The position numbers and the translations under genes were made by a program. From assembly GCA_015231405.1 (NCBI GenBank), contig JADGBR010000001.1, positions 385,762 to 449,761 of the forward strand: DNA of 64,000 nt. The letters are read 5' to 3'. The notes beneath the pieces were generated by a model that did not search any database, was not told where the DNA came from, and was given only the letters and a program-made list of their open reading frames with translations. Positions 40,101 through 59,166 of the stretch are shown here, one piece after another. This stretch comes from Candidatus Omnitrophota bacterium. Its GTDB lineage: Bacteria; Omnitrophota; Gorgyraeia; Tantalellales; Tantalellaceae. Position 1 is the first letter of the stretch. Every line of letters starts with the position of its first letter.

Positions 40101-43100
40101 CGAGATACTCTGGCTCCTTTCCGGCATAGCCCGCGGCGAAAAACAGTTCACTATAGAAAGGCCCGGGGATAAGCCCCATACCTTTAATATAGGAGAGAAC
40201 GTGTACGTAGTATTCACCATGAACCCCGAAGCCTACGGAGGCGGGCGCGGGGCGATACCGATACCGCTCAAGGAGGATATATTTAATATTTGGGTGCCGG
40301 ACTATTACGAGTATCCGGAGATGGCGCGTATAGTCACGGAATTTTTCGGCGGCATGCCGGAGCTCGCCAATATTACTGAGATGACCCCGGCCGAAACCTC
40401 CAAGGCCTCGACCCTTGAATTGGACAACAGGTTTTTCGAGATAAAACGCCTCTTTAGCCATCTTTACGCCAGGATGGAAGTCGAGGACGTAGTCAACGCC
40501 ATATATGATAAAGGGTATGAATTTACAATAGGCACGTTATACGGCCTGACTAAGGATAATGACCCGGCAAAGGCCAGGGAGAAATACTATGAGCTGAAAC
40601 GGGTAGAGGAAGAAATAATGTACGATCCGAAGGTGCGGGGAAAGATGTTACGTATTAGGACAAAGGTCGCGCTAATGGAGAAATATCTCAGGGACAAAGG
40701 CATGACCGTCAGCGTGAATTTCAGTCTATTTACGTGGTGGAGTCAGGGTGTGCGTGAAAAGAACGGCAAAAAAGAAATAATAGTGAATGTCCCGCTATAT
40801 GAGCTTGTCGACAAGAAAGACCATCCAAATATCAGGAAAGAAGGCAAGTCCGACAAGGTCATCGCCGGGCTTATCATACACGAACTAAGGCACTATTTGT
40901 ACAGCCCTAAAGACAATCTCGAATGGCGCGATATCGGTGTTGATATCGGGATAAACAGTTTTGCCCCGGAGATAAGAGAGGTGTTTGACACGTTCACGGC
41001 AGATCCGAAGGATAGGACGGTTAAGCGCCGGAGGGATGTCTTTCAGCTTTGGAACGCTCTGGAGGATGTTCGTATAGATCTTATGGAAAGGGATTCGGAG
41101 CATTTCCGGAGGCTTAAGGGCGCGCAGGAGAACGTCGACGAGATGATAAAGGATATGTTCAAGGATGAGACGAATGACCCGGGAGAGTTCGAGAAGAGAA
41201 AGAAAAAGGCCGTACGCGCCGCCTGGCTCCATCCTCATGCAATGCTGAGGGACGTATTATTCCGCTACGGTTATACGGGGGAATTCGGACCATATTTCGG
41301 GTTTTTTGACGAAGAACTGAAAAAGGCCGTACAGGAATTGACCGGTGCTATGATAGAGGCGACTCAGTCGTCCAAAGCGCGAATGAACATGAGCGATGTC
41401 AGCTCAGCTGGGGATTTTCTTAAAGAAAGGCGGCGCGCGTCAGGGGAAAGCGTTAAAGTGATACTCGAAAAGATATTGCCGAAATATCTTGAGCTCGCCG
41501 AAGAGTCGAAGAAAAGGGTTGATGAGGAAAAAAAGAAAAAACAGGGAGGCCCGAAAGGAACGGAAGTTGAAGAAGGAGACGGGAGTGAAGGCGGAGGGGA
41601 TCCCGGCGAGGGAGGAGAATCCGGGGAAGGAGGAGCGGAAGGTCTAGGTTCGGGTGGAAAACAGGAATTCTTGTTCATGCCGCCTGAACTCATGGAAGAG
41701 ATGTACGGAAGCGGCGATGAAAATAGCGGGGACGAGGGCCAATCCGGAGGGAAAGGAAATACCGGGCCCATGATAATAAGCCCGGGAGCGAAGAACGGTG
41801 TGAGAAAACCAGGTGACGGCCTCCCTGAGGATATGACCCCCCACGGAGGATCCGCCGGTACCCCGGGGGACGATGGCGGCAAACAAAACGCCGGAGGAAA
41901 AGACGACTCTCCGGACGACACGGAGGGCGATGACAATGACGGCCCCGATACCGAGGGCATGTCAAAAGCTAACCGCAGCCGAGCGATCAAGGAAGCTTCT
42001 TCCAAGATCAACAAAGAGCGGCTCAAGGGTGAGCCTATCAATCAAAGGCTCTCCGAGGTCGGAGGCCAGGCTAAACAGCTCGCGGAAGGTCTGATCAATA
42101 TATTCAATGTGCCGGAAGAAACCGAGGTGGAAGAGTCCGCTTACGGCAGGATCATTAACATGATAAGGATCATCATGAAGAGCATGACCCCTTTCGACGA
42201 GGAAGTCGATACGGGTAACCGCCCGGATCTCGCGCTTGGAATGACGGCCGATCTTTCCGGAAGCATGAAGGATTTCTTCCCGGCGATAAAGAAACTGAGC
42301 GCCATTTTTATCAGCTCGTTCCAGCGGATAGGTAAAAAAGCCGATTTCTCGGTGACTTTGGACGGGCCCGACGAGAACGGCGTCGACCATCCCCACAATG
42401 TCATAGATTTCGGAGAGAAACACGCACAGGACGAGCTCAACGGCGTACAGAACAGGGTGGAAAAGACCATGGCGAGGGAAGGCGGCGGAGGGATACACGC
42501 TTACAGCTGTCTTGAAGCGATAGTAGAAAAACACAAACGGTCAAAACAGAAAAATAAACTTGAGGTCATATTCACGGACGCTATGGACACCGAAGGAATG
42601 GAGTCCGAGAGGGAAGAAAAATTCCGGGAAGCCGAAAAACTGGGTGTTTCCATTTTGGTCGTGGGTTTCAGGAACCAGCAGAACAAAATGCAGGAAGTGT
42701 TCGGCAAGCACGCTTCGTATATCCTGGTCGACAGGGATAAACCCGAAGCGATAATAGGGGTCGTCCTTAACGCCGCCAAGATAAAGGCCAGGACCGGCAA
42801 GATACCTAAGGGGAATATCGGCCCGATGTTCGACCAGAAAGAGGGCGGAATGCTTGTTCGTAATGCTATGGACCTTATAACGAACGACGACCTCAGCGTA
42901 AGGATGAAAACGGAGAGCGAGATAAACGCCATGCGGTCGCTCGCCGATGTTCGGAGAACGGCGCTATACGAGGCGCGGATGACCGTCAGACAATTCAGCG
43001 TCCGCGACAGGCTTGAAAAGCTTATTGCCCGGTCCCGTGACGCTATAAGCGACCTCTGGAGGAATAACGGCAAGGATATAGTCGTTATGCCCGACCTTCT

Positions 43101-43686
43101 CTCGGACCCGTCCGTCGGCCGTATAGCCAGGGGCGCGAAAGACTTCGATAAAAAATTCGAGCAGACCACCGTCCCTCTTTTGTACAAATACGCCGACGGC
43201 GGCGCGAAAACCGAAGATATGAAGAAGCCACTTACCAGGGTTTTCCTGGAAGCGATAGGGGAGTTCGGTAAAGGCGGAGGAAGGAACGGCATACTCGTTT
43301 ATTTCCCCGGGGCCCTCAAGGATACCGGCCTCCTGGCAGAAGTAATGTCGGATGACCGAATAGCTCCTTTCAAGGACCACATAACCGTCATATACGGCGA
43401 TTATACACCTGGCGACCGCATGGACATAGTTTCGCATATCATCCTAGCCAAAGCCCTTCTTAACTACAATAGATACAAAAAAGGGATATACGGCAAAGAA
43501 ATGGACCCCGACGCGATAATGCGCCTTCTCGAATACCTCAAACTCTTAGTCGACGACAAAAAAGAGATAACAGAATCATTCATTACCGCTCTCCGTAACG
43601 GCGCCATCCTAAAGATCCGCAAACTGGACGTCAACGACATAGCCGCCCAGGAATCCCTCCAAACCGCCTTCTGGAAATCCGTCTAA
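25198..43686 (+). CDS. Giant 6162-aa secreted midasin-like protein: signal peptide, shared N-terminal twin-GX2H domain, three MoxR-type AAA+ modules, tandem WD40 propellers, HExxH motif, acidic G/E/D-rich tract, C-terminal vWA/MIDAS
   Basis: Uninterrupted 18,489-nt ORF. Signal peptide MKFKNFVKITAILVTVSFLQQSTFGYAQ. GIIHIQDAHC (25414-25443) and TGGFH (26641-26655). Walker A: GATGAGKT (29233-29256), GPPGGGKT (31309-31332), GDTGAAKT (39877-39900). Walker B: VSEMN (module 1, Asp replaced by Ser), IFDEG (31540-31545), IVDEAN (40081-40086). HELRH (40879-40893). Acidic low-complexity tract EEGDGSEGGGDPGEGGESGEGG...DDTEGDDNDGPDTEG (41560-41960). MIDAS DLSGS (42250-42264) with downstream IFTDAMD. Confidence 0.92.
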   Translation: MKFKNFVKITAILVTVSFLQQSTFGYAQFEYGDSTITKTDLGGNVEEKSVSFVPSSLATIKRSYTGDDKNAPGIIHIQDAHCVYPCQERINTILEHLEKDRGIKRIFLEGGSGRYDLTVFRQIADRELRREVSEVFMKEGVINAAEYFAANSDREIELIGVEDPALYMRNLGVFRETNKSIADETGLLEKFKVLMKKIASGVFSEDLAVFYSFYEGHKTDKIGLAEYIMYLSKVTGAAPGMRSPDAGNIAKIMKISAMEKAVDFRKAEKERTDMLDHLFRTLPNSIKERLLTEMVAYKKGERLDLEFNEYLAGVFGNTGESAGVRHEELDKYIEYLREWSGVDSFKLMEEIPLMENEIKKRFAANAGERTLVDIWDRVEQTEKILGFKLVSDEYVRIKTDTFKYTFGGILEDMRKAFAVDFSEDIEDLVAELGKADRDNRLIKNVLGFYEYSFERDGVFIEEINNAGRQGNGAGDGVSVFMTGGFHTGNICSLLEKNGMSYVSVIPKFDNEEGSSERYFGILAGKREGLVGGITAAMSNLQVPTLLDQALGAEVWGKGGIGRMEAAVYVQTLVSKGYRVEIYDDVTGETLFSYGKGGKLIRCARTNFPREVHERFIAETEGDAGKAGIAGEEVADDANVNAENVGKVLKERVYLRDEELEALVSGVIDYHSKFNELLEGVRKAASDPARFKISIREIKRFSDDFKRIFLALVASGYERTDSLTTAIGYASRNIYMDMLDEKSPEYQAMARLMADTDILSIPGIVKGNGDNLFDRTYAKVARAIDSGIPALFIKDKDALGALERAIKKYSQKPGVKVVNMECTPASDSAQLIGGFMPKGRVDVAEAYKRVGMAISGKAALSIIEILAELLDKKKEEVTEKERKDFTEIYDEGKGDEGLIIAAAMVLEDPKSWRNKLVYEKGLLARIIDKCKEDKDTTYIFNIENIEALPGRIRAQLNAFLLTGELRVPGAPGKKDRKLIAPKNLRIIASMSDEAVLEDGAFYDRFLRKKVAGANEDDFRALAKKDLPEIKEDTVKFLLKFREELNSGVSECSLADLMGIVKYAAEAASVNGDSVDQLVIAAYETGKYFDAKGVSKEKRADHDSVVMTSFAAMNDDSSLAPGDVSGVLDLFWDPARPGSGPPTFAWGGPGGLDRATLIKILRHIAVVAGGKSEMTMGEMSGVFQDEFGALLNTEVVDRYKGKFGDKPVDEFVSLLVFAVDGNDRSGVIVNLLEPFGPAAGGAGTDIAELMKVKNSGMRYDRGEKKIIFDIYAPGLKINKDISDKLERYISDRVKQKGKGGFSPDDEDGAIRDFFMDELDYFIGTDEKRMLSAVARSMEYGNGVIRIEGATGAGKTYTAELLSRIMDFGDEVRSRFYSEPVNKETKLARFLGYFRADKFGYYSIDQTTPFLDILKYGGVAAVSEMNTSVKDEYAKLAWWFIQFARGDREIFLNEYPRKGENGAISPSIKRHPKALIIIDVNPEDYEGRGKFPRELIENTPSVYVDEKMNDLEHIKKVTRAFLKHIDDGEKKDALVDFIAGAHVKIFDKVKEANENGDRYPPLSYRELARVTKSIPAGLAMNESLVMAEKAVNKYYIKAFVSEQIKSDLKLGLLLWSATEERDEIIKDVLFGNPEGRSPPVLVTSSSDENPFEDIDSAVNMFKEENPDKELYRERVRVTWFDDEFKLFGGFLPISIREKASAAAERLKVLLADAGTRDKANGIYRELQAKSAQPVNDLPEDISGLGDNFILSLSEALDALRSGREWTQALRYENGIIPRLIDEAERERKAKGKDAKIFIIELENIHRIKPGLAVAFNSILQEGYYYDPASHTRKQVPANLKFVATSVSESPLPFSVAEESRWVRLKQTERVFDPLDTGSAFQGIIPAMIRDERKKRVEAGMPDGGEDPSTDDLNKVTQSVLAYLRPYFINHLTSSKEAKIFVADFIKELTSIPDMVKLIRDDDEGFLRLISRSFALSAAMSFRGQGAGDSVKKTCRGYFDTTLAGKEALEKDDLLEDIDELVRVEAATFHAFNSDRIVLYEGPPGGGKTDMAIDVARRLGLKDYLFSCHNRVHTSELLGTFSQRSNGDFYYTGVPDSDGHYPEADFLEAMTHGGVYIFDEGAIGKRAQELLSVLSVLARGEKLFMLNEIPGYPPKEINVHKDFHIIITMNPPEETVGREPLPLEVYDQARKIWINNGLTQDSYRRIIRKFLDLSAREFGITLSSLFGSDEPGASDAFADALTGIHKTINSLVGKKISLSENVNLHLVTLRDMKAMVKDMVRYSAKGANRTEAFRIAVRNAYIDQFNRLRDRPGIADELGKLFRVDAMTGTRDVLAANGINIDVFLAGLIERELDKRYLDINELGGDESPGAILNEAPLVGPIPALDHPFGIDGSDIAETYEEPEQLRAPQCFSSNEFMKTRVDYTVKEMIVSPLSGPAGKTILGLVCGLWNYTLGRLFGRIIPLGRSKFSSGNFRVSTVKKVRGGADVQYNRPESGEWQPLMAKTDRSLDQYLGRIRASANPFVRYELPGNNRGERCVTSLKIGGREHLAFIDENEHKTVNIADMSRPGLTSSIVSLSAGRSDISYIKAIYIGKKQYLAVCHVGGEMALWDLSRKGKEKVIYLNFGWDVQDIAGIDLHGQNCIAILHAYKLTGRVLSDGCIRVIDLGTGEIRSVDLPKGYFREGKIFSENDSGKNKLFVNGRTNEVYMYDLDTKKLSMGLTDRKTIAPGDVSVFGMGKTFSVMPAEIPDTNGREGVALLDWDSSVQWVYPLELPHNKVKVMAEVRSGEKTYLVIAAGKGIVLWDVMGKSYKSVEYPFDGHIQRITALGDTGLFAVTDNHGTVRIWDIDIERHIAETRVKAEALERGEIPAGNDLPYGLKKRDLYGPEKFLGIKEEVETGIAPRAESGASCVYSGIQLKAGKSEKVRSGGDITKFREALVSDREARLFTRELSKEEIVAIPSANIVDIDKDASWGPGVLDMDNIFVELGATRGESLFFRVEKLSDQLERNDIHEIRELRMALDDKQEKVASGVIDVAGLSCLLTTDIKGVISLWDLKNDNVVRLKVCDNLVDKLVVMKNREGDVELVVPGDNNQLLFLRFAGGSGGIIPAGMRRVNTTADISGLDVIRDDKERDCLVFAGTEKLIAEPGQISYGLDRYPTLKVLSFTGETSGYITEIKAHPEAPGVLNVVKDDMGLGRLVSGEKFNMKLWGFAWKDGRIEGGSVSKFQVEGLAMENGTLIKDDIGRSHLVLPVKYENGRRLIMLDFDFKNGVLKGGISRTVDLKLKDISGVTAISDLDGDDRVVVSCDNSVIKMIGFDWDNGEIKGANSITFENPDSGGDIYGVHTFRAEDGTEYLVARRSGGRLDLWDPFIADKLAEARDLYDSGERSQAADTTPPLSAEALAKANAPSPMPAIPHGFTREQLLQEQDWHGEKVVLLKGDIVKGIPMEDIRKGDKYGWYGESYEKDPTVTGEVIHLTNGPADGLSIMTKTGKMVKGKERKFKKLGTPEKGNTLGWSMTRKIHEGELGTGKFERKDEEFFRLMNRDDQGDETRRHIDAGNAYIMTGEIMDEIDHGDPRKVSDMAEKIKHDSEVNEIKVFKCRGREIIVTTCLTNFIRIWDIEKNKVTTILGHNNVIFGLELLERSDKVYLVTGSSDNMIKFWALNAVGEVDRDHVTTLHGHSDSINDIRVIEREDGVYLVSASEDKTVKFWKLKGAGGIEFSEVTALKGHSGQVTKLEFFARDKKLYMASGDRVGAVKIWAFRGKSGADMESVTTLPEMKMDVSDLRILECAGKMYLAAGEGNGNIKLWGFAGDAGVNISGVTTVRVCNNGFGVMSSGGRTWLVTGGSDAVVKLLEISGKEGEDVVKGMTVLKGHGSYVTGVYVFEREGKQYLATGSEDKTFIVWDPFREEKFHEARAVVEAWERSHASDPMLQAPSSIPEAPSPMPDIPHGFTREQLLLEQEWHSEEAVLVNGDVSFDEVKDGKHGWFREGRENFPSEWQEVEPIMPDRERGESLDEAENRFYDVQAPRGNTLGWSFKRGIKGGESVTGTVQMKAKGYFDSTNWASPALDVGEYLASGNAYAMREGMEPYFDRYDSHKMSDMVEKITLGLANTDLVHISFDWNGRQYIVSGGDAGIKIWDISRGKVMTLKGHAGKVTSLQLIERKGKKYIASGGDDNDRTIKLWGLEDGEELGIGFVTTIRGHSAGIISLRVIGDKYLVSGSNDLTVKLWEFEGDDELGINTVTTLKGHSDWVRSLEVIGTPKGILFASGDMNGKIKLWSLTESGEVIAGNVLTIKAHGGCVQALKLMRYGEKTYLVSGSWDKSVKIWELGEKDNVDIAGVTVLKGFKNNVLSLEAIRRGDRTYLATGGEEDGMVKLWSLSGEAELSVDGVTILKAHTKWVSSIQVIVRDGKEYLTTGSGDDTLITWDPFRKQKFHEALAYLDAWERKVEGPSFVKASEGGRGSSVEGPMPNAPSPLPDRQVGMPEAGLGGGADDSNGPAFNAVDPGMDLPEDRDITEARYKLRSRGRAMLICEPGTRERVIVDEVARLEKFKYVYKLEGRPSLAPEDLIGSKYPVLEEEKRETNEEFVFKKGFLTRHMLTEEEHAKYLEEKSAGKDFPKKLLVIYNIDAIGEKARASLNNLLLNGYLNIPSVGKLWLPDNVEIIATMRVGSQQEFSSAFPNRMTKGNMSPMEAKGWGASDFAKYCRNVYGFDKYVLGKDDKGRPYDIADEIELLYDNIRSQEVTDRVWPSRMTYGFTVKDALTHAEFTALAIAERKKMGLGEPGKDELMNILVDEAMRVYGFKVRQFPSDYDSFVDSILKMQFSHKYVERAVIRDDVKISAGKLRELSGIPISPGHGALGMTLIERNYRLTLVGSMVGTMSAMIRGLAAGKVVSFTGDTGAAKTTMAVALARMTGVKDYVFSMHKDVKEYDLTGAVRMTDKGRFTFEIMEFAKQLEEGNTMLIVDEANIKPEILWLLSGIARGEKQFTIERPGDKPHTFNIGENVYVVFTMNPEAYGGGRGAIPIPLKEDIFNIWVPDYYEYPEMARIVTEFFGGMPELANITEMTPAETSKASTLELDNRFFEIKRLFSHLYARMEVEDVVNAIYDKGYEFTIGTLYGLTKDNDPAKAREKYYELKRVEEEIMYDPKVRGKMLRIRTKVALMEKYLRDKGMTVSVNFSLFTWWSQGVREKNGKKEIIVNVPLYELVDKKDHPNIRKEGKSDKVIAGLIIHELRHYLYSPKDNLEWRDIGVDIGINSFAPEIREVFDTFTADPKDRTVKRRRDVFQLWNALEDVRIDLMERDSEHFRRLKGAQENVDEMIKDMFKDETNDPGEFEKRKKKAVRAAWLHPHAMLRDVLFRYGYTGEFGPYFGFFDEELKKAVQELTGAMIEATQSSKARMNMSDVSSAGDFLKERRRASGESVKVILEKILPKYLELAEESKKRVDEEKKKKQGGPKGTEVEEGDGSEGGGDPGEGGESGEGGAEGLGSGGKQEFLFMPPELMEEMYGSGDENSGDEGQSGGKGNTGPMIISPGAKNGVRKPGDGLPEDMTPHGGSAGTPGDDGGKQNAGGKDDSPDDTEGDDNDGPDTEGMSKANRSRAIKEASSKINKERLKGEPINQRLSEVGGQAKQLAEGLINIFNVPEETEVEESAYGRIINMIRIIMKSMTPFDEEVDTGNRPDLALGMTADLSGSMKDFFPAIKKLSAIFISSFQRIGKKADFSVTLDGPDENGVDHPHNVIDFGEKHAQDELNGVQNRVEKTMAREGGGGIHAYSCLEAIVEKHKRSKQKNKLEVIFTDAMDTEGMESEREEKFREAEKLGVSILVVGFRNQQNKMQEVFGKHASYILVDRDKPEAIIGVVLNAAKIKARTGKIPKGNIGPMFDQKEGGMLVRNAMDLITNDDLSVRMKTESEINAMRSLADVRRTALYEARMTVRQFSVRDRLEKLIARSRDAISDLWRNNGKDIVVMPDLLSDPSVGRIARGAKDFDKKFEQTTVPLLYKYADGGAKTEDMKKPLTRVFLEAIGEFGKGGGRNGILVYFPGALKDTGLLAEVMSDDRIAPFKDHITVIYGDYTPGDRMDIVSHIILAKALLNYNRYKKGIYGKEMDPDAIMRLLEYLKLLVDDKKEITESFITALRNGAILKIRKLDVNDIAAQESLQTAFWKSV
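25400..26740 (+). other. Shared N-terminal domain (copy 1 of 3 in window) with twin GX2H motifs; hypothesised Tiki/TraB/GumN/EreA-like
   Basis: The motifs GIIHIQDAHC...EGGSGRYDLTVF and VFMTGGFHTGN...YVSVIPKF are conserved in the N-termini of the 6162-, 2263- and 1992-aa proteins. Confidence 0.55.
32750..33750 (+). other. Degenerate WD40-like beta-propeller region (module A) in giant protein 2
   Basis: Weak WD-like blades: LAVCHVGGEMALWDLS, IVLWDVMGKS, TVRIWDIDIERH. Much less regular than modules B and C. Confidence 0.4.
35950..36910 (+). other. 7-bladed WD40 beta-propeller (module B) in giant protein 2
   Basis: Blades end in IRIWDIEKNKV, IKFWALNAVGE, VKFWKLKGAGG, VKIWAFRGKSG, IKLWGFAGDAG, VKLLEISGKEG and FIVWDPFREE. 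LKGH/LHGH motifs precede each blade. Confidence 0.8.
37530..38480 (+). other. 7-bladed WD40 beta-propeller (module C) in giant protein 2
   Basis: Blades end in IKIWDISRGKV, IKLWGLEDGEE, VKLWEFEGDDE, IKLWSLTESGE, VKIWELGEKDN, VKLWSLSGEAE and LITWDPFRKQ. Classic GH...WD spacing. Confidence 0.85.
42230..42720 (+). other. C-terminal vWA/MIDAS domain of giant protein 2, immediately preceded by an acidic G/E/D-rich tract (41560-41960)
   Basis: LALGMTADLSGSMKD (DxSxS), then LEVIFTDAMDTEG and VSILVVGF beta-strands. An acidic tract followed by a MIDAS domain mirrors eukaryotic midasin/Rea1. Confidence 0.7.
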
Positions 43687-44283: not shown

Positions 44284-44739
44284 TTATTTTAAAGCGGTTT
44301 TAATATACCCAATGAACCTTTCAAAATCCGGAAGACGGTTTTGTACCATATCATATAGCTTATTTATATCTATCTCGAGATACTCATGGACGAGTATATT
44401 GCGGAAACCTGCCATCCCTCGTATCTCTTTAGCGAACTCCGCCGGAATGACATTTTTTTCGCCAAGTTTGACGATAACATCGGTATAGTCCTCGATCCCG
44501 TTCTCGCCGATCTCGGCAAGGACATGGTTCCCTATATCTAACAGACACTGAATGGCGATCTGAAGGCCGCGTTCAATTGCCCACTTATCGAAACAGGATG
44601 TTCTTATCTTTTCAAGCGGTACAGACCGGAGTCTTTTAAGATCATGAACAGTTCTTGTCAACTCGTCGATCTTTTTAATGATGATTTGAATATCTACCAT
44701 TTCCTCACCTGTATGCCTCAAATAGGGGTTTAACGTCAA
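44284..44739 (-). CDS. hepT: HepT-like (DUF86) RNase toxin of a HepT/MntA toxin-antitoxin pair
   Basis: 151-aa ORF with the Rx4HxY motif (FRNILVHEY, ~44380-44403). It overlaps the upstream MNT gene by 35 nt; an alternative start at the internal Met near 44700 would give a 4-nt gap. Confidence 0.75.
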   Translation of the reverse strand: MTLNPYLRHTGEEMVDIQIIIKKIDELTRTVHDLKRLRSVPLEKIRTSCFDKWAIERGLQIAIQCLLDIGNHVLAEIGENGIEDYTDVIVKLGEKNVIPAEFAKEIRGMAGFRNILVHEYLEIDINKLYDMVQNRLPDFERFIGYIKTALK

Positions 44740-45256: not shown

Positions 45257-48200
45257 TTATAGCGATCTTAATACTTCTGTTTCGGCCTTATAGAATTCTC
45301 TTATTTCATTTACGTTAATAGGCCTTATCACCACAAGGATCTCTCCTGAAGCAACCAGCCTCCTCACTTGCTCAGAGTCCTTTGGAGCGATCATGTCCAG
45401 AAAATCCATATAATTTACCGTACCTGACATTAACGCCAGTCTTTTAGCGAAAAGCTCCGTCGCCTCGTTGATATCTTCCAGGTAAAGGCTTACATCGGTA
45501 GGCGCTCTCTCTAACCTGCTAGCCCAATGAGCGCTGTCCAGGTAGGCTATGCCCGCCAAGATCGACCCCTCAACCGGCTGTGTTTTTTTTCCTTCCGGGT
45601 TTTCGGTGCCTAAGTAGACCATATAGGCGTTTTTTTCAACTTCTTCATTCCTCATGTCTCCTTCGTTCCTTGATGTGAACACAATGGCTTTATTAACGCC
45701 GTATTGTTCTGTCATGGCAGCTATATCATGTACTTCATCGGGATTTGTCTCGTCAAAGAAACGTATCGTTATATTTCCTAATTTCAATTCCTTTATTTTG
45801 TCGCTTGCCGCGCCTCTGACTTCCTGTATATACCCCTGAAGTACAGAGTCAATTTCACCGGCCGCCTCGGCATTACGGCCTATTCCTATAAACGTCTCTT
45901 CGCCTTCAAAAATATTTTTCGAACACTTAGCAAATATACCCATGTCAAGATCTTTGGCCTTCGCCATGAGGTCCATGAAAATGTCGCTGTCAACGCTTAT
46001 CGGTTCAAGCCCATTGACCTTGATGACGATTGACGGCTTTTCGATATTTTTCAACGCGCTCGTTTCTCTTTCTACGCTTGGCTTTTGGCTGTTGATCTCA
46101 TGCGCAGATACTCCGCCGTTTTTGCCTGGCATTTTAGCGCTGGTCACTTCCTCATCAGGAACATCTCCCGCTGGCACACCGGCGAAAGTCGGAACTTGGC
46201 GGTTACCTGGCTTACTCATCGCGTTTATCACTATGGATTTCTCCATCTCGTCACGGTTTGACATGCGGTCTAGCTCATACTGGCTTGCTTCATACGCTTT
46301 TATAATATCATCCTTTACATCGGATTCCAGGGCGAGCGAGTTTATGTTGTCATGCAGAACCTTAAGAATAGCTTTAAATACCGCAAAGTCTTTCATTATC
46401 TCATCTGTACCTATTCCGCCTCTTTCTTTCGTGTCAAAGGCTTTGTTTAAAAGTATATCCGTAAAGCCTCCCCAAGGGTTCTTTAAGCGCCATTCAGCGT
46501 TAATATTCCTGAGCATGTCAATAATCGCGTTCCTTTGAAGCGCATGGATCTTATTCGCCGAAAGTCCCCTTCCGTCCCCGGAAGGTTTCATGCCAAGGAT
46601 CTTCACCAGGTCTCTCTTCGTCTGAAAGGTATTTATGATCGTACCCACGCTGTCTGCCTGCAGATTGAACAGGAATTTTCTTCTTGCTTCATCAGCTATC
46701 TCCGCAAGGTCATCCCATTCGCCGGATACCATCTTTATGACCAGGTCGTCATCACCGAATCTGGATCTGTCTTTGCCGACCACATCACGCCAGAAAATGT
46801 CCTCATTCGATACGGCAGTATCTCCCTTAAAACGAAGGTCAGATTTTTTTATCTTGAATTTGGCTTTTGTTCCGTTAAAGGTCTCGGCGTCTTTTACGCC
46901 GATTATCTCTAATTCACCGTTTTTCAATAAGCCCAGTAGAAAATCGTGTATCTGTTTGTTGTATCCCACATACTGATACCCTCTTGCCTTTTCGCCTTCA
47001 AGCCAGGCCTGATGAGTCTGTTTGGCAAGTAAAGCCAAAGCGTCATTCCCGGCCGAATCATATATGGAGCGTGTTTCATTAACAAATTTATCACGCATAT
47101 CTCCGCTTATTTTCTGCAGACTTTTCAAGGCATCATAGTTGGTCAAGCCGTTTTTCATCCGGGCAATGATCTCCCATTGCCGCACATTCCATTCTTCAGC
47201 CATGGCGTAAAACACATCATAGCTGAATGAACCTTGAATTACCGCTTTATCGGCAAACATATCCGTAAGATCTTTTACGGTCTTAGGCACCAGGTTGAGC
47301 TTAACATGTTTCAGGCTATTGATGTTTTTACCGGCCCTTACCCTGAAATCATTGTCCCCTTTTTGATAGACCTCTGTAAGGTTTCTAATAGATCCCGAAT
47401 AGAGGCTTATGACCTCATCCTCAACGCCTAGAGCTTGTAATCTTTCCGTTATTGCCTGGGCAACCTTCCTTTTTGCGGCGTTTTCGGTCAAAAAACTCTC
47501 CGCCGCCAATGCGCCTGATATATCCTCACCTATACCGCTAAGGCTTTCGACCTCCGGCCTTTCCCGGGTATTTTTTAATATTTCCGCTTCCAGTGCCGCT
47601 TCAGAATCGAGCTCTAAAAGTATGTCATTTATCTTTTCGGCGTCTTTCTGAAGAATACCCACCACCCCGGGGTTTAAGGCATATTTTCCAATATCCTTTC
47701 CGAGAACCGCGAATATTGCCTTCATTACGTCAAAATCTTTTTTAATTTCTTTCACGCCTATGCCGTTTTCACTTACGTCAAATGGCCTGTTCAGTAATTT
47801 ATCGTTATATCCTCCCCAGGGATTTTTCAACCTCCAAACGGCGTTTATATTTCTAAGCATTTCGATCACCGCCTGTTTCGCCTCATCGACGTTATCTGAT
47901 ACCATTCTGCTCATTAGTTCCGCGTCCTGCATAGCGTTAATGATCGCTCCTACGCTGTCTGCCTGCAGCTGGTAAAGGTAAGCCTTTCTTCCGGCAGGAT
48001 CTATGCCTTCAACATTATCGGCTATCTCAACTAGATCATCCCAGCTGCCGGCTATATTCTTTATTACAATATCTCCATCATCAAATGTATCGGCTTTTTT
48101 CCCTATAAGCTTCCAGAAGTCTGCCGCGGAATTGCCGGGCCTGAATTTAAGATCATTTTTCTTTATTTTAAACTTGGTCTTAGCGCCGTTAAAAGCGTTA

Positions 48201-51200
48201 ACATCGGCTATCCCTTCTATAGTAAGATCTCCCGCTGCCATCATCTTTACGATACCCCTATGAATAGCGATGTTATACCCAACGTATTTATCTCCTCTGG
48301 CCTTTTCGCTTACCAGCCAGGCTTCATGGGTTTCTTTCGCGAGTAGCAGTAATGCCTGGTTATCACTATCGTTGAGTTCTAATGTGCCGGATTCGAACGC
48401 CTTTCTCAATCTGTCGTTCTCAGCCTTTACCTTCATTAACCCCTCATATACGGGTAACGCCCCTGCCAAACGGGCCTCTACCTCTATTACGTCGGTATCC
48501 CAAGCCTTTGACAAAGCAAGGATGATGTCTGAGTTCACTTTATCTTTTACCTGCTGGGCGCTTCCAAACACGCCTTCCAGACTCCGGCCGTTCCCTAAAA
48601 CATTGACAAGGTCTTCTAATGTGACAAATTTTGCTTCTTCGATCCTCTTTTTGCAATAATCATACACCTCTTTTTCGAAATCACCCCATTCTTTTTCCTC
48701 TGTATCGCTGATCCACTCTATTTTCGTTGCCCTTCTGCCTTTTTCTTCTTTATGATATTCTTCTATAAGATTCAGAACATCCGCCGGCATCATATTGTCG
48801 ATCATGAATTTCATAAGATTCATCATGCCGTCTCTATTTTTACCGAACTTGACTTGCGCCCAGGCCCAGCGATGCGAACCGGCAACCTCAACGCTGCCTC
48901 TATTCCTGCGGTCCTTAACTTCATGTTCTTTTAAAGCCTCCAGCATAGCCGGATCCGATTTAAGCATTTCCATGGTCTCTCTGGTAACACAAATATCAAT
49001 TTCATCAACATTCCTGCGCTTTTTTCTTATTGCGAAATTGATCTTCCGGTCCGCGTTAAAGAATACCGGCTCAGTATGCATATTCGGTTGTAATACCCTG
49101 AAATGAACCTTATAACCGTCATAAGGAGAACCCTTTTCGCTGTATACCAGATCCTGATAACCTTCTTCCGGAAGCGAATTATTGAACACATCCTGAGCTG
49201 TCTGCCTTGGGTCGCCTGCCGTATCCCTAACCTGGTCGCCTATCTTTACGGCGGCTGAATTTTCGCTGCCGGTTATATGAGCGCTTGTTATCTCACTTAT
49301 ATTCAAAATAATATTTTTAAGATCGCCGTTCACTATCATGGCGTCCTGTTCATTTTCCGGCTTTGAGCCTTTGTATATACCCACGCTAACCGTTCTAGCT
49401 GTTTCCCCGTCACCTTTCATGTCCATCTTAAATGAAACTAAAAGATTGTCTGCCTTATCGATCTCACTTCCTGAAATAACGACATAAGACGATTCTGTCT
49501 TGCCTCCTAGCGCCGACTCATTCCATTCCTGCTGGACAATGAAATTCTCGCCTCTTCCAATTTTCGCCAAAACCGCTACCTGCCTTTCTATGCGCGCCCG
49601 GTCAGGGCTTTCTACATCGGAAAACGCCGACAGTATCGCGATATTGGCATTCGCGGGATTTAAAGCCATTACCATGTCCAAAAACTTGTCAAATTCCGAG
49701 ATATCGCCGGATAATAATCTGAAATATGGACAGCCTTCGTACACCTTGAATTTAGGCATCACGCTGATATATGAATATCCTTCCGCCGCGCAAAGTTCGC
49801 GGAGATTGCTTTTATGAAAACCTCCTGTTACGAGCACCGCGATATTGGTACCGTCGGCAATCAGCTTATCGTTTATCTTTGACATGAACGCTTCATCGCG
49901 CTCAAAGGAACAGTCATAAAATTTTTCCATCTGCTGCATAAAACCGTCCAGTCGATCGATACTTTCCGGAAGCTCAGAGGCAAAACCGTGTTTCCTGTTG
50001 AACCCATTAAACAACCTTTTAATGTTAGATACGCTGAATTCGCTTTTGTGGCTTTTGTAATAAAGGTAAGTGTCTTTTACCAGGCCCGCTCGCAGTAGAT
50101 CCCCGATTATTTCTAAATGCTTCTCAATGAGATACAGATCTTTCTGGTCATCCTCGCTCATAAGAGATAGCATAAGTTTCTCCTCGATCGCGGCGAGCTC
50201 TTTATGAAGCATTGCTTTATCAATTTTTTCAAACTGCTCAAGATACGCAGAATATTTGACCAGATTAGGCAGCTCATCGAAATCAATAAGCTCCTTCCTC
50301 GCCTTCCTAAAAAGATATTTATACAGATCATCTTCATTAATGTCCTTCGTCCCGGCCTTCAAAGACATCATCGCTAATTCTTGTTCGTCATTTCTGGACA
50401 GCTTTTTGCTCAGCTTTTCGGTCAAAAGGTTTCTTTCCTGTCTCGCCTTCCTGAAATCTATATATTGTTCCTGCTCGATAACCTTTACCAGATCATTAAA
50501 ATGCCCATATCCATCCATCGATACGCCATAAGTGCCGCAGTTTTTATTTAAAAGCAATACCAGTTCTTTAAATCCGTCTTTTTTGCCCCTCTGATCTTTA
50601 AGGCTCCCGCTGACCTGTATCATTTCTTTTGAATAAATCTTGCTTCGGTAATTTAAAACCATGCTCGTTAACGTATTGATATCTTTTTCAGCTTCATCTT
50701 TAAAAGACATGGAATCCCTGAAAGCATTGAGGTTTTTAAAATATAGCTCAGGCATTTCCACCCCGAAAAGTTCTACAGCCTCCGGATTTAATAATTTAAA
50801 GTATTCAGGTCCGCTTAGGCGTCCTTCCCTCACAAAATAATCGGCTATTTCCTCTCTGATAGCGGTATCCTGAATGTCAGTGAAAACTGAAAGATCATAT
50901 TGCCCGCTTCCACCTTCCAGAAAAACAAGGTCTACCCCGTGATTGGCCGATAAATATCCGATAATATTTGAAATGGACTTTTGCGCGAAGTAATTACAAT
51001 GCGCGTCTTGAATATGCAGAATTGTTTTTCCGTTTGTGCCTGGAAGAACATCCTGTACACTGCCCATGCTTAAAGGTATATCCAAGCCGGCAATATCTGG
51101 CGGCACTTGTGCTTGCAGGTTTTCAGCTTTGGCTGAAGTCTCAAACGAACCGAAAGAAAATAGACTAAACATAAAGAAGACCGAAGTTGCAAGTGATACG

Positions 51201-51235
51201 TAATTAGTAATGGTCTTTCGTTTATAAATATTCAT
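45257..51235 (-). CDS. Giant 1992-aa secreted protein with the shared N-terminal twin-GX2H domain, an internal ~230-aa duplicated module and the shared C-terminal EVLRSL domain
   Basis: AAGGA lies 7 nt upstream of the ATG at 51235. Signal peptide MNIYKRKTITNYVSLATSVFFMFSLFSFGSFETSAKA. ILHIQDAHC (~50999-51025) and TGGFH (49814-49828). Duplicated modules ALLLLAKETHEAWLVSEKARGDKYVGYN... (~48360-47700) and ALALLAKQTHQAWLEGEKARGYQYVGYN... (~47050-46350), each ending ...WRLKNPWGG.... C-terminus ...INVNEIREFYKAETEVLRSL. Confidence 0.9.
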   Translation of the reverse strand: MNIYKRKTITNYVSLATSVFFMFSLFSFGSFETSAKAENLQAQVPPDIAGLDIPLSMGSVQDVLPGTNGKTILHIQDAHCNYFAQKSISNIIGYLSANHGVDLVFLEGGSGQYDLSVFTDIQDTAIREEIADYFVREGRLSGPEYFKLLNPEAVELFGVEMPELYFKNLNAFRDSMSFKDEAEKDINTLTSMVLNYRSKIYSKEMIQVSGSLKDQRGKKDGFKELVLLLNKNCGTYGVSMDGYGHFNDLVKVIEQEQYIDFRKARQERNLLTEKLSKKLSRNDEQELAMMSLKAGTKDINEDDLYKYLFRKARKELIDFDELPNLVKYSAYLEQFEKIDKAMLHKELAAIEEKLMLSLMSEDDQKDLYLIEKHLEIIGDLLRAGLVKDTYLYYKSHKSEFSVSNIKRLFNGFNRKHGFASELPESIDRLDGFMQQMEKFYDCSFERDEAFMSKINDKLIADGTNIAVLVTGGFHKSNLRELCAAEGYSYISVMPKFKVYEGCPYFRLLSGDISEFDKFLDMVMALNPANANIAILSAFSDVESPDRARIERQVAVLAKIGRGENFIVQQEWNESALGGKTESSYVVISGSEIDKADNLLVSFKMDMKGDGETARTVSVGIYKGSKPENEQDAMIVNGDLKNIILNISEITSAHITGSENSAAVKIGDQVRDTAGDPRQTAQDVFNNSLPEEGYQDLVYSEKGSPYDGYKVHFRVLQPNMHTEPVFFNADRKINFAIRKKRRNVDEIDICVTRETMEMLKSDPAMLEALKEHEVKDRRNRGSVEVAGSHRWAWAQVKFGKNRDGMMNLMKFMIDNMMPADVLNLIEEYHKEEKGRRATKIEWISDTEEKEWGDFEKEVYDYCKKRIEEAKFVTLEDLVNVLGNGRSLEGVFGSAQQVKDKVNSDIILALSKAWDTDVIEVEARLAGALPVYEGLMKVKAENDRLRKAFESGTLELNDSDNQALLLLAKETHEAWLVSEKARGDKYVGYNIAIHRGIVKMMAAGDLTIEGIADVNAFNGAKTKFKIKKNDLKFRPGNSAADFWKLIGKKADTFDDGDIVIKNIAGSWDDLVEIADNVEGIDPAGRKAYLYQLQADSVGAIINAMQDAELMSRMVSDNVDEAKQAVIEMLRNINAVWRLKNPWGGYNDKLLNRPFDVSENGIGVKEIKKDFDVMKAIFAVLGKDIGKYALNPGVVGILQKDAEKINDILLELDSEAALEAEILKNTRERPEVESLSGIGEDISGALAAESFLTENAAKRKVAQAITERLQALGVEDEVISLYSGSIRNLTEVYQKGDNDFRVRAGKNINSLKHVKLNLVPKTVKDLTDMFADKAVIQGSFSYDVFYAMAEEWNVRQWEIIARMKNGLTNYDALKSLQKISGDMRDKFVNETRSIYDSAGNDALALLAKQTHQAWLEGEKARGYQYVGYNKQIHDFLLGLLKNGELEIIGVKDAETFNGTKAKFKIKKSDLRFKGDTAVSNEDIFWRDVVGKDRSRFGDDDLVIKMVSGEWDDLAEIADEARRKFLFNLQADSVGTIINTFQTKRDLVKILGMKPSGDGRGLSANKIHALQRNAIIDMLRNINAEWRLKNPWGGFTDILLNKAFDTKERGGIGTDEIMKDFAVFKAILKVLHDNINSLALESDVKDDIIKAYEASQYELDRMSNRDEMEKSIVINAMSKPGNRQVPTFAGVPAGDVPDEEVTSAKMPGKNGGVSAHEINSQKPSVERETSALKNIEKPSIVIKVNGLEPISVDSDIFMDLMAKAKDLDMGIFAKCSKNIFEGEETFIGIGRNAEAAGEIDSVLQGYIQEVRGAASDKIKELKLGNITIRFFDETNPDEVHDIAAMTEQYGVNKAIVFTSRNEGDMRNEEVEKNAYMVYLGTENPEGKKTQPVEGSILAGIAYLDSAHWASRLERAPTDVSLYLEDINEATELFAKRLALMSGTVNYMDFLDMIAPKDSEQVRRLVASGEILVVIRPINVNEIREFYKAETEVLRSL

Positions 51236-51440: not shown

Positions 51441-54400
51441 TTACAACGACCTCAACACCTCTTTCTGGGCCTCGTCCCAGTCGGCTATTTCCTGGTAATT
51501 AATACGGGTTATCTGCATCCGGATAGTACCCTGGAACACTTTATTGAATAGGGTGTTCAATATGCCGTTGAGCTCTGTTACATCGGTGACATTATCAAGG
51601 TTGTCTATCAGGTCCGAGCTTTCCGTGTTCATTTCGAAAAACCTGCATGAGTTGAGGAATAGCATATGTTTTTTAAGGATACGTGCCTTTTCAGCTTCAT
51701 TATAGTTGACTTCTCCGGCGATTATACGACTGTCGGCGCATAGAATATCGCCGACGGCGATTATTTTAGCCTCATCCGGTTTGTATGTGCTAAGGGTAGC
51801 GGCATCGACCGGATCGTACATGATTATCACCATGTTCTGTATATCGGGAGAATATCCGCTTAAAACTTCTTTAACAGTTAGTTTATCGGAGTCGGTTATG
51901 CAGTCGACGGTTATTTTGGGATAGGACGTTTTGTCCCTGGCTATAGCTTTCATTGCCAGATCGTCGATCGCGTACTTGAGTCGGGTCGCCAGATCATTAT
52001 CAGGGTTATCGTCAAAATGAATTACCTGGTCTTTGATCTTATCGTTTTTATCAGCTTTTCTTCTGAATTCCTGGTCGATCGTCGTCTGAACTGACGCCAT
52101 TTCCGGGTTCGGGCTTCTTATGAGGTGAATGTTCACCGTGCCTTTAAGCATATCGCCCCGCATGGACATCAGTTTCAACGTAAATGCCTGATTGGCGTCC
52201 GGGTCGATATGGTCCTGTAGGCCGAAAAGCCATTCTTTTTTCGGTGAGGCGTCCAATATTTTATGTTCCTGTGAGCTGTTGTAACGAATAAGAGCCTCTT
52301 CGCTGTCTGACATCCCCAGAGGCCTGGTAAGCTTGATCTTTTCTCTTAGTTCCGCTATAAAATCGTCAATGCCGAGTTTTTTCAACCCCTCCGGGGAGAT
52401 CTCTTTTAGGAGCGTAGCATAAGCTATCCTTACGTCTTTTCCTACGCCGCGCATAAAAGTATGTCTTGTCATTTTGGCGAATTCGGCGCCTTCCGGCAAT
52501 TCTATGAAACCTTCGCCGAGTTCGTGTATAAGCGCCAGCGGGTCATCGATCAGGTCGCGGTTCAGGTAGATCACACCTGTATTTTTGTCAATTATACCCT
52601 TAAGGTCATTATTGGCATCATTTTCCTCCATATGATCGATCGGGACCGCCCTACTGACTGAGCCAAGCGAAGTGATAAGCTTTTCGACGATCTTTCTGTC
52701 TTTTTCAGTCAGAGTGCTCCGCCCTTTTTTAGATAAAAGGGCCTGTATTGTGTCGATGATCTCTTTGGTCGGCTTTTCAGGGATGTCCTTCGGAATTGAT
52801 AGTTCGATGGCTTCCATATTATCTCCGCTTGTGCTCTTCACGGTAAGGAGGGTGTCGCTAGGTCTTTCGACGGCGAAACCGCCTGTTTTTAAAACGCCGT
52901 TTACGAATACCTTGCCGATGAGGCTATGATTTTCGGAATTCGCTCCTTCCGTATAGACAGGGTCGGGTATGAATGTTCCGTTACGTGAATTGAGGTCATT
53001 AACAATCCATCCGTCGGTGCTGCCCGGAATTATTTCGCAATGTTCTCTTGACGCTTGTCTATGCGTGACCATGATCTGTTCGCTGTCCCGGCCTATGAGG
53101 ATCCTGCCTATCCCCGTAATAACATTTCGTTCTTTTCCCTTGCGTATAACGGCTTCAACATTTCCTGACGCTCGATCGCGCATGACACTTATTATCTCGA
53201 TCACCGGCGCACTGCGGCTTGCGCCGATCTTGACAAATCTGGGATTTGGTGCGATATTGCCGACGGCTATCCGTTTCCACTGGGTAGGTTTGTCGGTAAA
53301 TGTTCCGTTCCTTGATTCAAGGTCGGTAAGGATAATAGTATCTCCATATCTCCTCAGTTTAAAATGCTCCCTCGATACTGAGAGTTCGGTGACAAAGTGC
53401 GTTCTGAAAATATCTCCCTTCCTTCCGATGGTGAGCTCTTGGCCGTCTTTTAGCGCTTCCGATATCGATAACGAATCAAGGATAACCCCTGGACGGCTCA
53501 ATTTAGTTAAAACGATCCTGTTTCCATAGAAATGCAGAATAAAGTTCCCGAACTTCACTCTTTTGGGGTCTATGACGGGGTTGATCCTGTCTTTGGCGGG
53601 ATCGGTCAGATCCCGGTCGTTTTTAGCCTTGTACCAGATACCATCATCAAGATCGGATACTTCGTCCGGGTTTAATACGGATGTTATCTTAGGTACGGTC
53701 ATTCTGGTGCCGTTAAGTGATCCCCTGTCCGTTACTTTAACAAGGATCTTGCCGTCGAGCATATAGAATGTGAGCATAAGATGGTTTCGGGATATACCCG
53801 GCGAATTTCTCGGGTATCTATTAGGTTCCGCGTTGTTGAAGTTATTACCTATTGTTATGGGCGTATTGAATTCAATCGTATGATTTTCGTTCCCTATCCG
53901 GAGCATCCTGACATTTGCTGCGCCGGCCGTAATTGAGCAAATTTCATTTTCAGGAGCGTCGGCATTTTTCCCCGAAATGGTAAAATGTATTTCATCAGAA
54001 TCGTTATTAAGCGTTATTAATCGCGGGATCATGCTTGAGGTATCGCTTCTATGCATATCGAATGACAGTCCGGGTTGAGGATTTAAAGGCATCACCGGCA
54101 GTAAAGCCAGGCTTAGCGCCCGTTCCATAATAGTATTGGATACCGATCCCGGGTCATTATCCAGCCGGGCGAGGACATCGGCGACAAGTTGATGTCTCAT
54201 TGTCCAATCGTAAATATCGTTATAGACCGAAACAAAACTTGTTATGGCTCTACGTGTTGTCAGAGCCAGGTCATCCGATTTCCCCGCGATGATAGCTCTT
54301 CCGGTCCGGTGATACTTTTCATGCAAGAGGATCAAACCCTGGTGGCTTATAAGATTCCTTTCGACGGCCCAAAGGAGCTGAGCTTTAGCCAGATCGATCC

Positions 54401-58335: not shown

Positions 58336-59166
58336 TTACTTTTGTTGAAGGACAAGTGAATTGTTTTCGGGGTCGATCTTGATGTGAAAATCCCTTAAAA
58401 AAGACATTCCGAGAAGACCGTCATGGTCAGTGTTCGAGGAAGTCTTTTCGATCATAATGGCGGCTTTGACATTTTGAGAGGAAACGTTCCCTACCTTGAT
58501 CGACACTAATTGGATCGGGAGGCATTGGGCCGTGCTTTTGTCAGCGAGTTGTATCGAGATAGGCTTTTCACCTTTTGTGTCCATATGAAGCTTTTCGGCT
58601 ATATAAGGCGAAATAACGACGATGCTGGCTCCGGTGTCAAGTAAAAGTCTTGCCTCTACCCTGTTGTTAATAAGGGCGGTCACGATTATTCTCGAGCGGT
58701 CAGTGTACCTGATAGTGGTAGAGGACCTATGCGCGGCCTCAAGATCGAAGAACCGCTTAAAATATTCGTTCTCGGTCACTTTACGTAACGCGGATTTTTC
58801 CTTACTGTTATCGGTGCTGTAAAATTTCCAGTCACTGATCAAGGCTTCTTTTTGGCGCGAATCTGACGGGGTAATGATTTCAACGATATCTTCTTTTGAA
58901 ATGGATGTTTTGCCGTAACCCAGGTCCAGGATCATTCCCGTATCTTTTTCTTCTTCAATGACGCCGAATATCTTCCCTCCGCTTTTAAGTTTTACTATAA
59001 CGACGTTCAGATCTTCCATGAGGGAAATTTTCTTATCCGTAAGGCTGTCGACTTTTTTCGAATAGAAATAATCATTTAAGAACGTCAATATCGGGGCTTT
59101 GAATTCTATAAAGACCAAAAGAGACAGGATAGTAAGTAGCAAAAATAATCTTAAGAATTTAACCAT
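58336..59166 (-). CDS. Membrane-anchored retropepsin-like (clan AA) aspartic protease
   Basis: 276-aa ORF with N-terminal TM anchor MVKFLRLFLLLTILSLLVFIEF. Active-site motif LLLDTGAS (DTGA at ~58627-58638), followed by ...IVVISPYIAEKL and DGLLGMSFL, typical of pfam13650/13975-type bacterial retropepsins. Located immediately upstream of, and co-directional with, the 2263-aa gene. Confidence 0.75.
   Translation of the reverse strand: MVKFLRLFLLLTILSLLVFIEFKAPILTFLNDYFYSKKVDSLTDKKISLMEDLNVVIVKLKSGGKIFGVIEEEKDTGMILDLGYGKTSISKEDIVEIITPSDSRQKEALISDWKFYSTDNSKEKSALRKVTENEYFKRFFDLEAAHRSSTTIRYTDRSRIIVTALINNRVEARLLLDTGASIVVISPYIAEKLHMDTKGEKPISIQLADKSTAQCLPIQLVSIKVGNVSSQNVKAAIMIEKTSSNTDHDGLLGMSFLRDFHIKIDPENNSLVLQQK

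Follow-up and report, generated by a model that had tools for sequence, protein, structure and literature searches.

This report concerns a 64,000-nucleotide stretch of the genome of a Candidatus Omnitrophota bacterium (assembly GCA_015231405.1, contig JADGBR010000001.1, positions 385,762 to 449,761 of the forward strand), hereafter the window, and the ending shared by two long proteins encoded side by side on its minus strand. The Omnitrophota are uncultured, possibly predatory nanobacteria, noted for very long proteins of unknown function. Protein A is specified by a 1992-residue open reading frame (ORF) at 45257-51235 and protein B, which adjoins it, by a 2263-residue ORF at 51441-58232; the intervals 45257-45860 and 51441-52040 hold the final 200 codons, together with the stop, of A and of B, respectively. 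Both proteins, together with a 6162-residue protein encoded on the plus strand of the window, finish in an undescribed, phylum-restricted and strictly C-terminal domain of Omnitrophota, referred to below as the C-domain.

A first-pass annotation of the window had noted the hexapeptide EVLRSL at the end of both A and B, and ORF translation confirmed its presence and its coordinates. A back-translated EVLRSL pattern occurs twice in the window, at these two termini, against 0.06 occurrences expected. When the full-length proteins are compared by BLASTP, the C-terminal match is confined to the last 32 residues, which align with 47% identity at E=0.06; the same match reaches E=0.003 when the last 300 residues serve as input. 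The hexapeptide is encoded by GAA GTA TTA AGA TCG CTA in A and by GAG GTG TTG AGG TCG TTG in B. Since five of the six codons differ, all synonymously, the identity has been kept by selection on the protein and not by recent gene conversion. EVLRSL is also the commonest ending in the family described below (12 of 145 tails), and the identity of A and B over six residues is the family consensus, with no special link between the two proteins.

The annotation had further claimed that the C-terminal similarity extends over about 200 residues. Homology of that extent was recovered through family profiles, although pairwise comparison aligns only the last 32 residues. Across the family the C-domain is a single homologous domain of ~190-230 residues, and a profile of four relatives from outside the window matches A at residues 1800-1992. 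With the last 60 residues cut off beforehand, so that only the upstream regions were compared, hhalign joined the A-type region to the remaining family (probability 99.4%, 146 columns), the B-type region to the remaining family (95.5%, 135 columns) and the B-type region to the 6162-type region (97%, 142 columns), whereas the direct comparison of A-type with B-type was non-significant (E=0.1). The A-type and B-type upstream regions align in the register proposed earlier (NITIRFFDE with QVIHFDDNPDND; ILAGIAYLDSAHW with IIAVGDILCADSR). The homology of the two C-termini over ~200 residues is real and transitive, with strong conservation limited to the last ~30-60 residues. The possibility that no extended domain lies behind the shared ending, and that it reflects chance or a recent, local conversion event between the tandem paralogues, draws on the brevity and marginal E-value of the direct match and on the non-significant comparison of the upstream profiles; it is refuted by profile links that run 135-146 columns upstream of the tail, by hundreds of independent family members that carry the C-domain at the same position, by the differing codons and by the excess of the pattern over expectation, and we give it practically no credence. 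The segments concerned are as follows, where HMM denotes a hidden Markov model.

45260-45895, minus strand: C-domain of A, residues ~1781-1992 (1781-1992 by the deep family HMM, 1800-1992 by the A-type profile, 1820-1992 by the leave-out profile).
45260-45355, minus strand: terminal strand-plus-helix unit of A (VASGEILVVIRPINVNEIREFYKAETEVLRSL), the sole part that aligns directly with B (BLASTP, AlphaFold2 model, tail logo).
51444-52133, minus strand: C-domain of B, residues ~2034-2263 (2034-2263 by the deep HMM; upstream part by hhalign).
43132-43683, plus strand: C-domain of the 6162-residue protein, which ends ...ILKIRKLDVNDIAAQESLQTAFWKSV; a third copy in the window, beyond those of the first-pass annotation.

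Word-indexed homologue searches, made with the C-terminus of A and with a 12-sequence alignment of the C-domain, returned no matches, and an exhaustive HMM search was needed. In this search a 12-sequence profile of the last ~205 residues was compared with 1.84 billion representatives, yielding 253 cluster representatives at E<=1e-3 and 119 at E<=1e-10, most of them spanning profile positions ~10-40 to 202. The EVLRSL-terminated domain, which the first-pass annotation had marked as one to be sought at the ends of other large proteins, is thus that of a large family. Protein B (P0033) was recovered at residues 2057-2263 with E 3.7e-36 and the 6162-residue protein (P0031) at residues 5968-6162 with E 2e-38. 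The leave-out profile aligns residues 2208-2263 of B within an envelope of 2034-2263; in the 6162-residue protein the domain occupies residues 5979-6162 by the deep HMM and 6051-6150 by the leave-out profile. The match ends on the final residue of the protein in 145 of the 155 proteins rescored locally. All named members of the family belong to Candidatus Omnitrophota, most representatives carrying no taxonomy in the library.

The fold of the C-domain was modelled with AlphaFold2 from the last 205 residues of A and a 46-sequence alignment; a 12-sequence alignment gave a predicted local distance difference test score (pLDDT) of 55 and was unusable. The model is a confident one of a compact alpha/beta domain that folds as one unit (pLDDT 91.2, predicted template modelling score 0.83) that passes from a long helix through alternating helices and strands and a long helical hairpin to a strand at 179-183 (ILVVI) and a helix at 188-204 (NEIREFYKAETEVLRSL). 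Comparison of the model with PDB and BFVD gave no structural relative, its sequence profile gave no match in PDB, and Pfam and NCBIfam gave no relative of the domain. The tail of the family has the consensus ...G.h.L.I[RK]P[IV][DN]..EI..[WF]..A...[VI]L[RKQE][SA][LV]-COOH, finishing exactly at the protein end, with conserved hydrophobic positions at I-22, I/V-19, I-14, W/F-11, A-8, V/I-4, L-3 and L/V 0. This is the spacing of a buried strand and helix face, and the tail is predicted to be the last beta-alpha unit (a strand plus an amphipathic helix) of a globular domain and not a free peptide. Its last two positions are the most informative of all, position -1 being S/A in 144 of 145 proteins and position 0 being L/V in the same proportion. 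A near-invariant small residue followed by an aliphatic one suggests a binding pocket that accommodates the free C-terminus. Besides the D/N and S/A positions of the tail, the C-domain has no invariant polar residue.

A and B also resemble each other at their N-termini, as the annotation had reported: BLASTP aligns residues 32-543 of A with B at 33% identity over 514 residues (E 8e-91). This region is a domain of ~520 residues, marked by HIQDAHC...TGGFH, which follows a signal-like segment and with which the C-domain is almost always paired; it is referred to below as the N-domain. It is found three times in the window.

49607-51235, minus strand: signal-like segment and N-domain of A, identified by BLASTP against B; the sole hydrophobic segment of A lies at residues 13-31.
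56622-58232, minus strand: signal-like segment and N-domain of B, with the N-terminus MRKYFRSIITFITILALLTGQSPA followed by QM.
25198-26877, plus strand: signal-like segment and N-domain of the 6162-residue protein, aligned at 28% identity to A, with HIQDAHC and TGGFH invariant.

All three proteins thus show the full set of family features, namely a C-domain running to the last residue, an N-domain and a signal-like segment ahead of it. An N-terminal profile built from them matched 29 proteins, and all those with a named source come from metagenome-assembled genomes (MAGs) of Candidatus Omnitrophota; most complete members of this set share the tail type, for example ...IIPIKKINYENIRAFIAAEKEILRSL and ...ILVKIRPVDGSEIRALHEAEAEVLRAL. 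Scanning GTDB species representatives for the N-domain gave 402 loci, of which the 80 kept are all from Omnitrophota MAGs (some labelled ‘Planctomycetia’). Several paralogues occur in one genome: three in the window, and, among the 80 loci, four each in two MAGs. Names given to members by NCBI include ‘protein kinase’, ‘AAA family ATPase’ and ‘DUF58’.

Many C-domain matches are metagenome fragments without an N-terminus and give a biased estimate of how often a C-domain is accompanied by an N-domain. The pairing of the two domains was assessed from the N-terminal side. Loci were selected by N-domain, with the C-terminus ignored; 52 of the ORFs are intact at the 3' end, and 45 of these finish in a C-domain. 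This number includes 32 with a match to the C-domain HMM (in 30, the match runs exactly to the stop) and another 13 with divergent tails that hhalign assigns to the C-domain (probability 98.2%, E 3e-14, 195 columns); the remaining N-domain ORFs are mostly broken by runs of N or by frameshifts. Among fetched proteins, 59, ranging from 887 to 7165 residues, begin with the N-domain and have the C-domain as their very last part. Some 20 minimal members of 887-1068 residues contain the two domains joined by a low-complexity linker rich in Pro, Gly and Glu. The shortest linker is ~130 residues, and the longest centre exceeds 6000.

Of the 62 members with enough upstream sequence, 58 have, ahead of the N-domain, a stretch rich in K/R and then a hydrophobic segment, which often ends in ...DAWA followed by A or in a similar way. 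By inspection, we read these segments as putative Sec signal peptides. Beyond the N-terminal one, A, B and the 6162-residue protein show no further hydrophobic or transmembrane segment. In the NCBI record of A (MBF0215724.1, HQL30_01890) the protein has 1936 residues and starts at Met57 of the ORF used here. That start drops the signal-like segment and family-conserved residues (51068-51235, minus strand), and the longer start is therefore more likely to be correct.

A second type of N-terminus was also observed, in which a signal peptide is followed, ~40-57 residues in, by the motif L-x-V-[EQ]-[ST]-[IP]-F-[STK]-[PG], with instances such as LQVQTPFKP, LAVESIFTG, LQVESIFSP and APPSIFSP. It is carried in the window by a 5122-residue giant (776-1100, plus strand) and by the adjoining 249-residue protein (16190-16400, plus strand), and elsewhere by the protein P0045 and by an 875-residue ORF at locus L071 (6637-9261). 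The latter two have an A/B-type C-domain at the end and no HIQDAHC N-domain.

Between the two ends the proteins of the window diverge, and the centres of A and B show no similarity by BLASTP.

45896-49606, minus strand: centre of A, with no Pfam domain above threshold and an internal duplication of ~290 residues.
52134-56621, minus strand: centre of B, unrelated to that of A, with FHA domains at residues ~1601-1756 (Pfam E 2e-20; FhaB-like in NCBIfam).

The gene for the 6162-residue protein (25198-43686, plus strand) encodes AAA_5 modules and long WD40 arrays in its centre. Pfam matches in 17 other long members are to Pkinase (4), ABC1 (2), FHA, cNMP_binding, Peptidase_M48 and DPBB_1. Conserved ends around differing centres, which the first-pass annotation had taken to indicate cassette-like modular evolution, are therefore a property of the family as a whole, as seen in the 59 two-domain proteins, the 45 of 52 independently selected ORFs and the unrelated Pfam content of the centres.

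Some further features of these centres were recorded. In A, residues 962-1235 and 1397-1687 (window positions 47531-48352 and 46175-47047, minus strand) are duplicates with 44% identity (E 4e-72); both copies begin LLAK.TH.AWL..EKARG..YVGYN and neither has a Pfam match. The centre of B has a zincin-like HExxH motif, HELGH, at residue 903 (55515-55529, minus strand), in a region without a Pfam match, and a looser HEKYH at residue 1304. The gene for the 6162-residue protein has a G+C content of 0.50-0.53, above that of the rest of the window (0.40-0.48).

The first-pass annotation had also raised the possibility that the C-terminus is a sorting, anchoring or secretion signal, to be compared with known ones. 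Known signals were sought with Pfam and NCBIfam profiles in A and B at E<=0.1-1, in 25 minimal members at E<=10 and in the 17 long members, and none was matched; the C-terminus of A and B likewise lacks a transmembrane segment and a basic tail, and the tail lies inside the predicted fold. The C-terminal domain (CTD) of the type IX secretion system (T9SS; Por_Secre_tail/TIGR04183) was rejected on the absence of a profile match and on differences in fold and size. A PEP-CTERM/exosortase signal was rejected since the last 100 residues of A, B and the 6162-residue protein hold no hydrophobic segment and NCBIfam gave no match. The tails end ...EVLRSL (A and B) or ...FWKSV (the 6162-residue protein), none of them basic, and sortase substrates of the LPXTG type were rejected on the absence of the motif, a transmembrane helix and a positive tail in A and B and of any such motif in the family tail logo. 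Against a signal for the type I secretion system (T1SS) of the RTX kind stand the signal-like N-termini of 58 of 62 members, the lack of a HemolysinCabind/RTX match in Pfam and the placement of the tail within the predicted fold. Dockerin (PF00404) has no Pfam match in A, B, the 25 minimal or the 17 long members.

A further candidate was the class of Omnitrophota giants known as ‘Archaeovorins’ and Dockerin-type proteins, which have tens of thousands of residues, many transmembrane helices and HEAT or dockerin repeats (bioRxiv 10.1101/2023.11.21.568195; 10.64898/2026.06.07.730766); as defined in the preprint of West-Roberts et al., the class includes dockerin/TSP3 repeats, and its genes have a type II/IV-like secretion locus upstream (bioRxiv 10.1101/2023.11.21.568195). 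The family described here resembles it in phylum, length, signal peptides and puzzling cytoplasm-type domains (AAA_5, kinases), and differs in that A, B and the 6162-residue protein have no internal transmembrane segments. Membership was rejected, as neither HEAT nor dockerin matches were found and the N-terminal segment is the only hydrophobic one in these three proteins. Searched for terms describing terminal domains, neither preprint text (10.1101/2023.11.21.568195; 10.64898/2026.06.07.730766) mentions proteins bookended by the HIQDAHC N-domain and the ...VLRSL C-domain.

Gene-neighbour clustering over 79 loci revealed no dedicated partner, the only conserved context being housekeeping synteny (etfBA, MiaB-like, rsmE) in one orthologue group, and among the loci compared no conserved neighbour fits a dedicated transporter or processing enzyme. 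The orthologue group in question has the divergent tail ...IKLPPISKIDIDGNMETYFATEIAASTSL (loci L016, L029, L031, L036, L038, L040, L057, L063 and L078) and lies directly downstream of etfB and a ferredoxin-fused etfA, with MiaB-like and RsmE-like genes further upstream (match at ~10001). Because its synteny is conserved, this group looks old and stably inherited and not mobile.

The data presented above lead us to propose, tentatively and with confidence a little short of even, that the C-domain serves as a folded module for docking or assembly, acting together with the N-domain in exported, modular ‘bookend’ proteins specific to the Omnitrophota. Such a protein consists, in order, of a Sec-type signal-like segment, the ~520-residue N-domain, a freely variable centre and the ~200-residue C-domain. 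The N- and C-domains, as the invariant part, would position, retain or assemble the molecule at the cell envelope, acting against each other or against a common partner, and the centre would be exchangeable cargo; the free C-terminus would lie in a pocket, either in cis or in trans, and the C-domain, probably uncleaved, would serve for docking or assembly and would not be a sorting peptide of the classical type. We favor docking because the pairing with the N-domain is near-obligate even in cargo-less members, because the C-domain is strictly terminal with conserved last two residues, and because no conserved neighbour gene presents itself as a dedicated exporter or processing enzyme.

A comparable arrangement is found, as an analogy, in TonB/TolA tethers, where an N-terminal membrane or signal segment and a long or flexible spacer lead to a small globular C-terminal domain for a distal partner; the bookend proteins show no similarity to them in sequence or fold, and have a large N-domain and a spacer of up to thousands of folded residues. 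Dockerins are likewise terminal docking modules on many signal-peptide-bearing paralogues with different functional parts, but a dockerin is ~70 residues long, with duplicated EF-hand-like Ca-binding loops and cohesin as its partner, whereas the partner of the C-domain is putative.

Several observations weigh against docking at the envelope. The centres are rich in ATP-dependent domains of cytoplasmic type (kinases, AAA_5, FHA), a poor fit to an envelope-resident protein. The signal peptides were called by inspection, and contact between N-domain and C-domain is pure inference, as is the binding partner. A few C-domain proteins have no N-domain: P0045 and the 875-residue ORF at L071 have a signal peptide and a different N-terminus, and P0115 and P0131 are multi-transmembrane proteins. 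The C-domain is therefore able to function in proteins that have no N-domain, in keeping with a role closer to that of a tag. Finally, a recognized secretion domain would be just as strictly terminal and would likewise have a conserved last residue.

This last point leads to an alternative that we regard as rather unlikely, though it is the one to be taken most seriously, in which the C-domain is a new folded secretion or sorting domain, functionally like the T9SS CTD. Once the protein had been exported by Sec, a translocon of the outer membrane or cell surface, or a machine for delivery to prey, would recognize this domain, and the protein would reach the surface, the medium or a target cell, the domain possibly being removed. 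Like the T9SS CTD, the C-domain is folded, lies at the extreme C-terminus and occurs on Sec-exported proteins that are often very large, are unrelated in other respects and have many paralogues within a genome. Secretion would account for the terminal position in 145 of 155 proteins, the extreme terminus being the best-conserved part of the tail, the signal-like N-termini in 58 of 62, the very large paralogues within single genomes and the occurrence of the domain with at least two N-terminal types (P0045 and the L071 ORF being of the second). Kinase, AAA, FHA and cNMP cargo needs ATP and would be more sensible inside another cell, and the phylum has been proposed to consist of predators or parasites whose giant genes are flanked by type II/IV-like secretion loci (bioRxiv 10.1101/2023.11.21.568195). 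One would not, however, expect a pure export tag on cargo-less members, which are abundant, or in near-obligate pairing with a single ~520-residue partner domain, and both features are unlike generic sorting tags. No similarity was found to any known secretion domain, no conserved secretion or processing gene adjoins the family in the loci compared, and no secretion genes were found among the scanned ORFs of the 64-kb window. The T9SS CTD itself is an Ig-like beta-sandwich of ~70-100 residues, whereas the C-domain has ~200 residues of alpha/beta structure ending in a helix, is nearly always accompanied by one N-terminal domain and gave no structural match, and no T9SS was seen in the window.

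The N-domain offers a different interpretation of the same pairing. Its invariant residues, H, D, H, C, E and GGFH, are typical of a catalytic or metal site, and its pattern HIQDAH...LEGG...TGGFH is compatible with the Tiki/ChaN/TraB/EreA superfamily, which is characterized by a strand-His motif towards the N-terminus, a Glu, and GxxH towards the C-terminus. PF04187 (ChaN, Tiki superfamily) matches the minimal member P0011 faintly, exactly at GGFH (E 0.25; 11.8 bits against a cutoff of 27.7). The N- and C-domains could then be two halves of one enzyme or ligand-binding unit, such as a Tiki/ChaN/TraB-like hydrolase with a flavodoxin-like regulatory domain, or an N-domain with the [SA][LV]-COOH tail docked in its cleft, and the centre would be a set of inserted regulatory modules. 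Minimal members that are just two domains and a low-complexity linker agree with this, as do centres composed mostly of signalling domains. The PF04187 match is far below threshold and was obtained with one of the 25 minimal members, PDB searches with sequence profiles of the N-domain and of whole minimal proteins gave no matches, the C-domain offers no invariant polar residue outside the D/N and S/A tail positions, and the C-domain is also found without the N-domain. We consider two halves of one unit improbable.

Several other features of the window were recorded. Directly upstream of B (58336-59166, minus strand) lies the gene for a 276-residue protein that has a transmembrane segment at its N-terminus and an aspartyl protease domain of the retropepsin-like kind (PF13650, E 7e-19); PADLOC gave a weak match of this protein to the candidate defence protein PDC-M08B and nothing for A or B, and the neighbour is not conserved at other loci. 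Just downstream of A is a HepT-like ribonuclease toxin gene (44284-44739, minus strand; PF01934, E 7.5e-30). The 5122-residue giant mentioned above (776-16144, plus strand) has at least two AAA_5 modules of dynein/MoxR type and a VWA domain near the C-terminus, in a midasin-like arrangement, with hydrophobic segments at residues 21, 4081 and 4795. It shares with a 480-residue protein of five transmembrane segments (16973-18415, plus strand) another C-terminal domain of ~212 residues (25% identity, E 5e-18), which occupies 15506-16141 and 17777-18412 (plus strand) and runs to the last residue, with endings similar in appearance to those of A and B (...RYLKAA and ...QFLMAA). Its identification as a C-domain was rejected, as no profile links the two; the locus may thus contain another module that is strictly C-terminal. 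The interval separating the two giants of the plus strand holds genes for a 1506-residue protein with BACON_2 and ASH/MSP-type Ig-like domains (18743-23263, plus strand) and for a 518-residue short-chain dehydrogenase with a long N-terminal extension (23300-24856, plus strand).

A more speculative proposal, which we consider more doubtful still than two halves of one unit, is that the N- and C-domains form an unrecognized delivery or assembly chassis of the Omnitrophota. Recognition of the [SA][LV]-COOH end, whether by an N-domain (its own or that of the next molecule) or by a machine of the envelope, would assemble the proteins or translocate the cargo into a host or prey cell. ATP-dependent cassettes (Ser/Thr kinases, FHA, AAA_5/VWA, WD40, cNMP-binding) would be carried between two invariant ends, following a MARTX-like logic with entirely new parts. 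MARTX toxins have glycine-rich repeat ends, are exported by a T1SS without a Sec signal and use a cysteine protease domain to free their effectors. The analogy extends to the invariant ends, the cassette-like centre, the very large size and the variation of centres across strains or paralogues; the glycine-rich repeat ends, T1SS-type export and cysteine protease domain were not found in the bookend family, and no homology is claimed.

Terminal targeting or docking modules that flank exchangeable cargo are a familiar principle, and the parts used here are without known relatives. Two undescribed domains without a relative in Pfam, NCBIfam or PDB have been defined, and the rule ‘same two ends, any middle’ covers hundreds of proteins of 0.9 to 7 kiloresidues, giving annotators a handle on them. 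The C-domain also provides a small, confidently folded target of ~200 residues, with a two-residue terminal motif, for tests of localization, partner binding or secretion. If the two domains do form a delivery or assembly device, this would explain the occurrence of kinases and ATPases outside the cell’s own cytoplasm and the accretion of long genes, and a chassis of this kind would offer the Omnitrophota a route to very long proteins by insertion between fixed ends.

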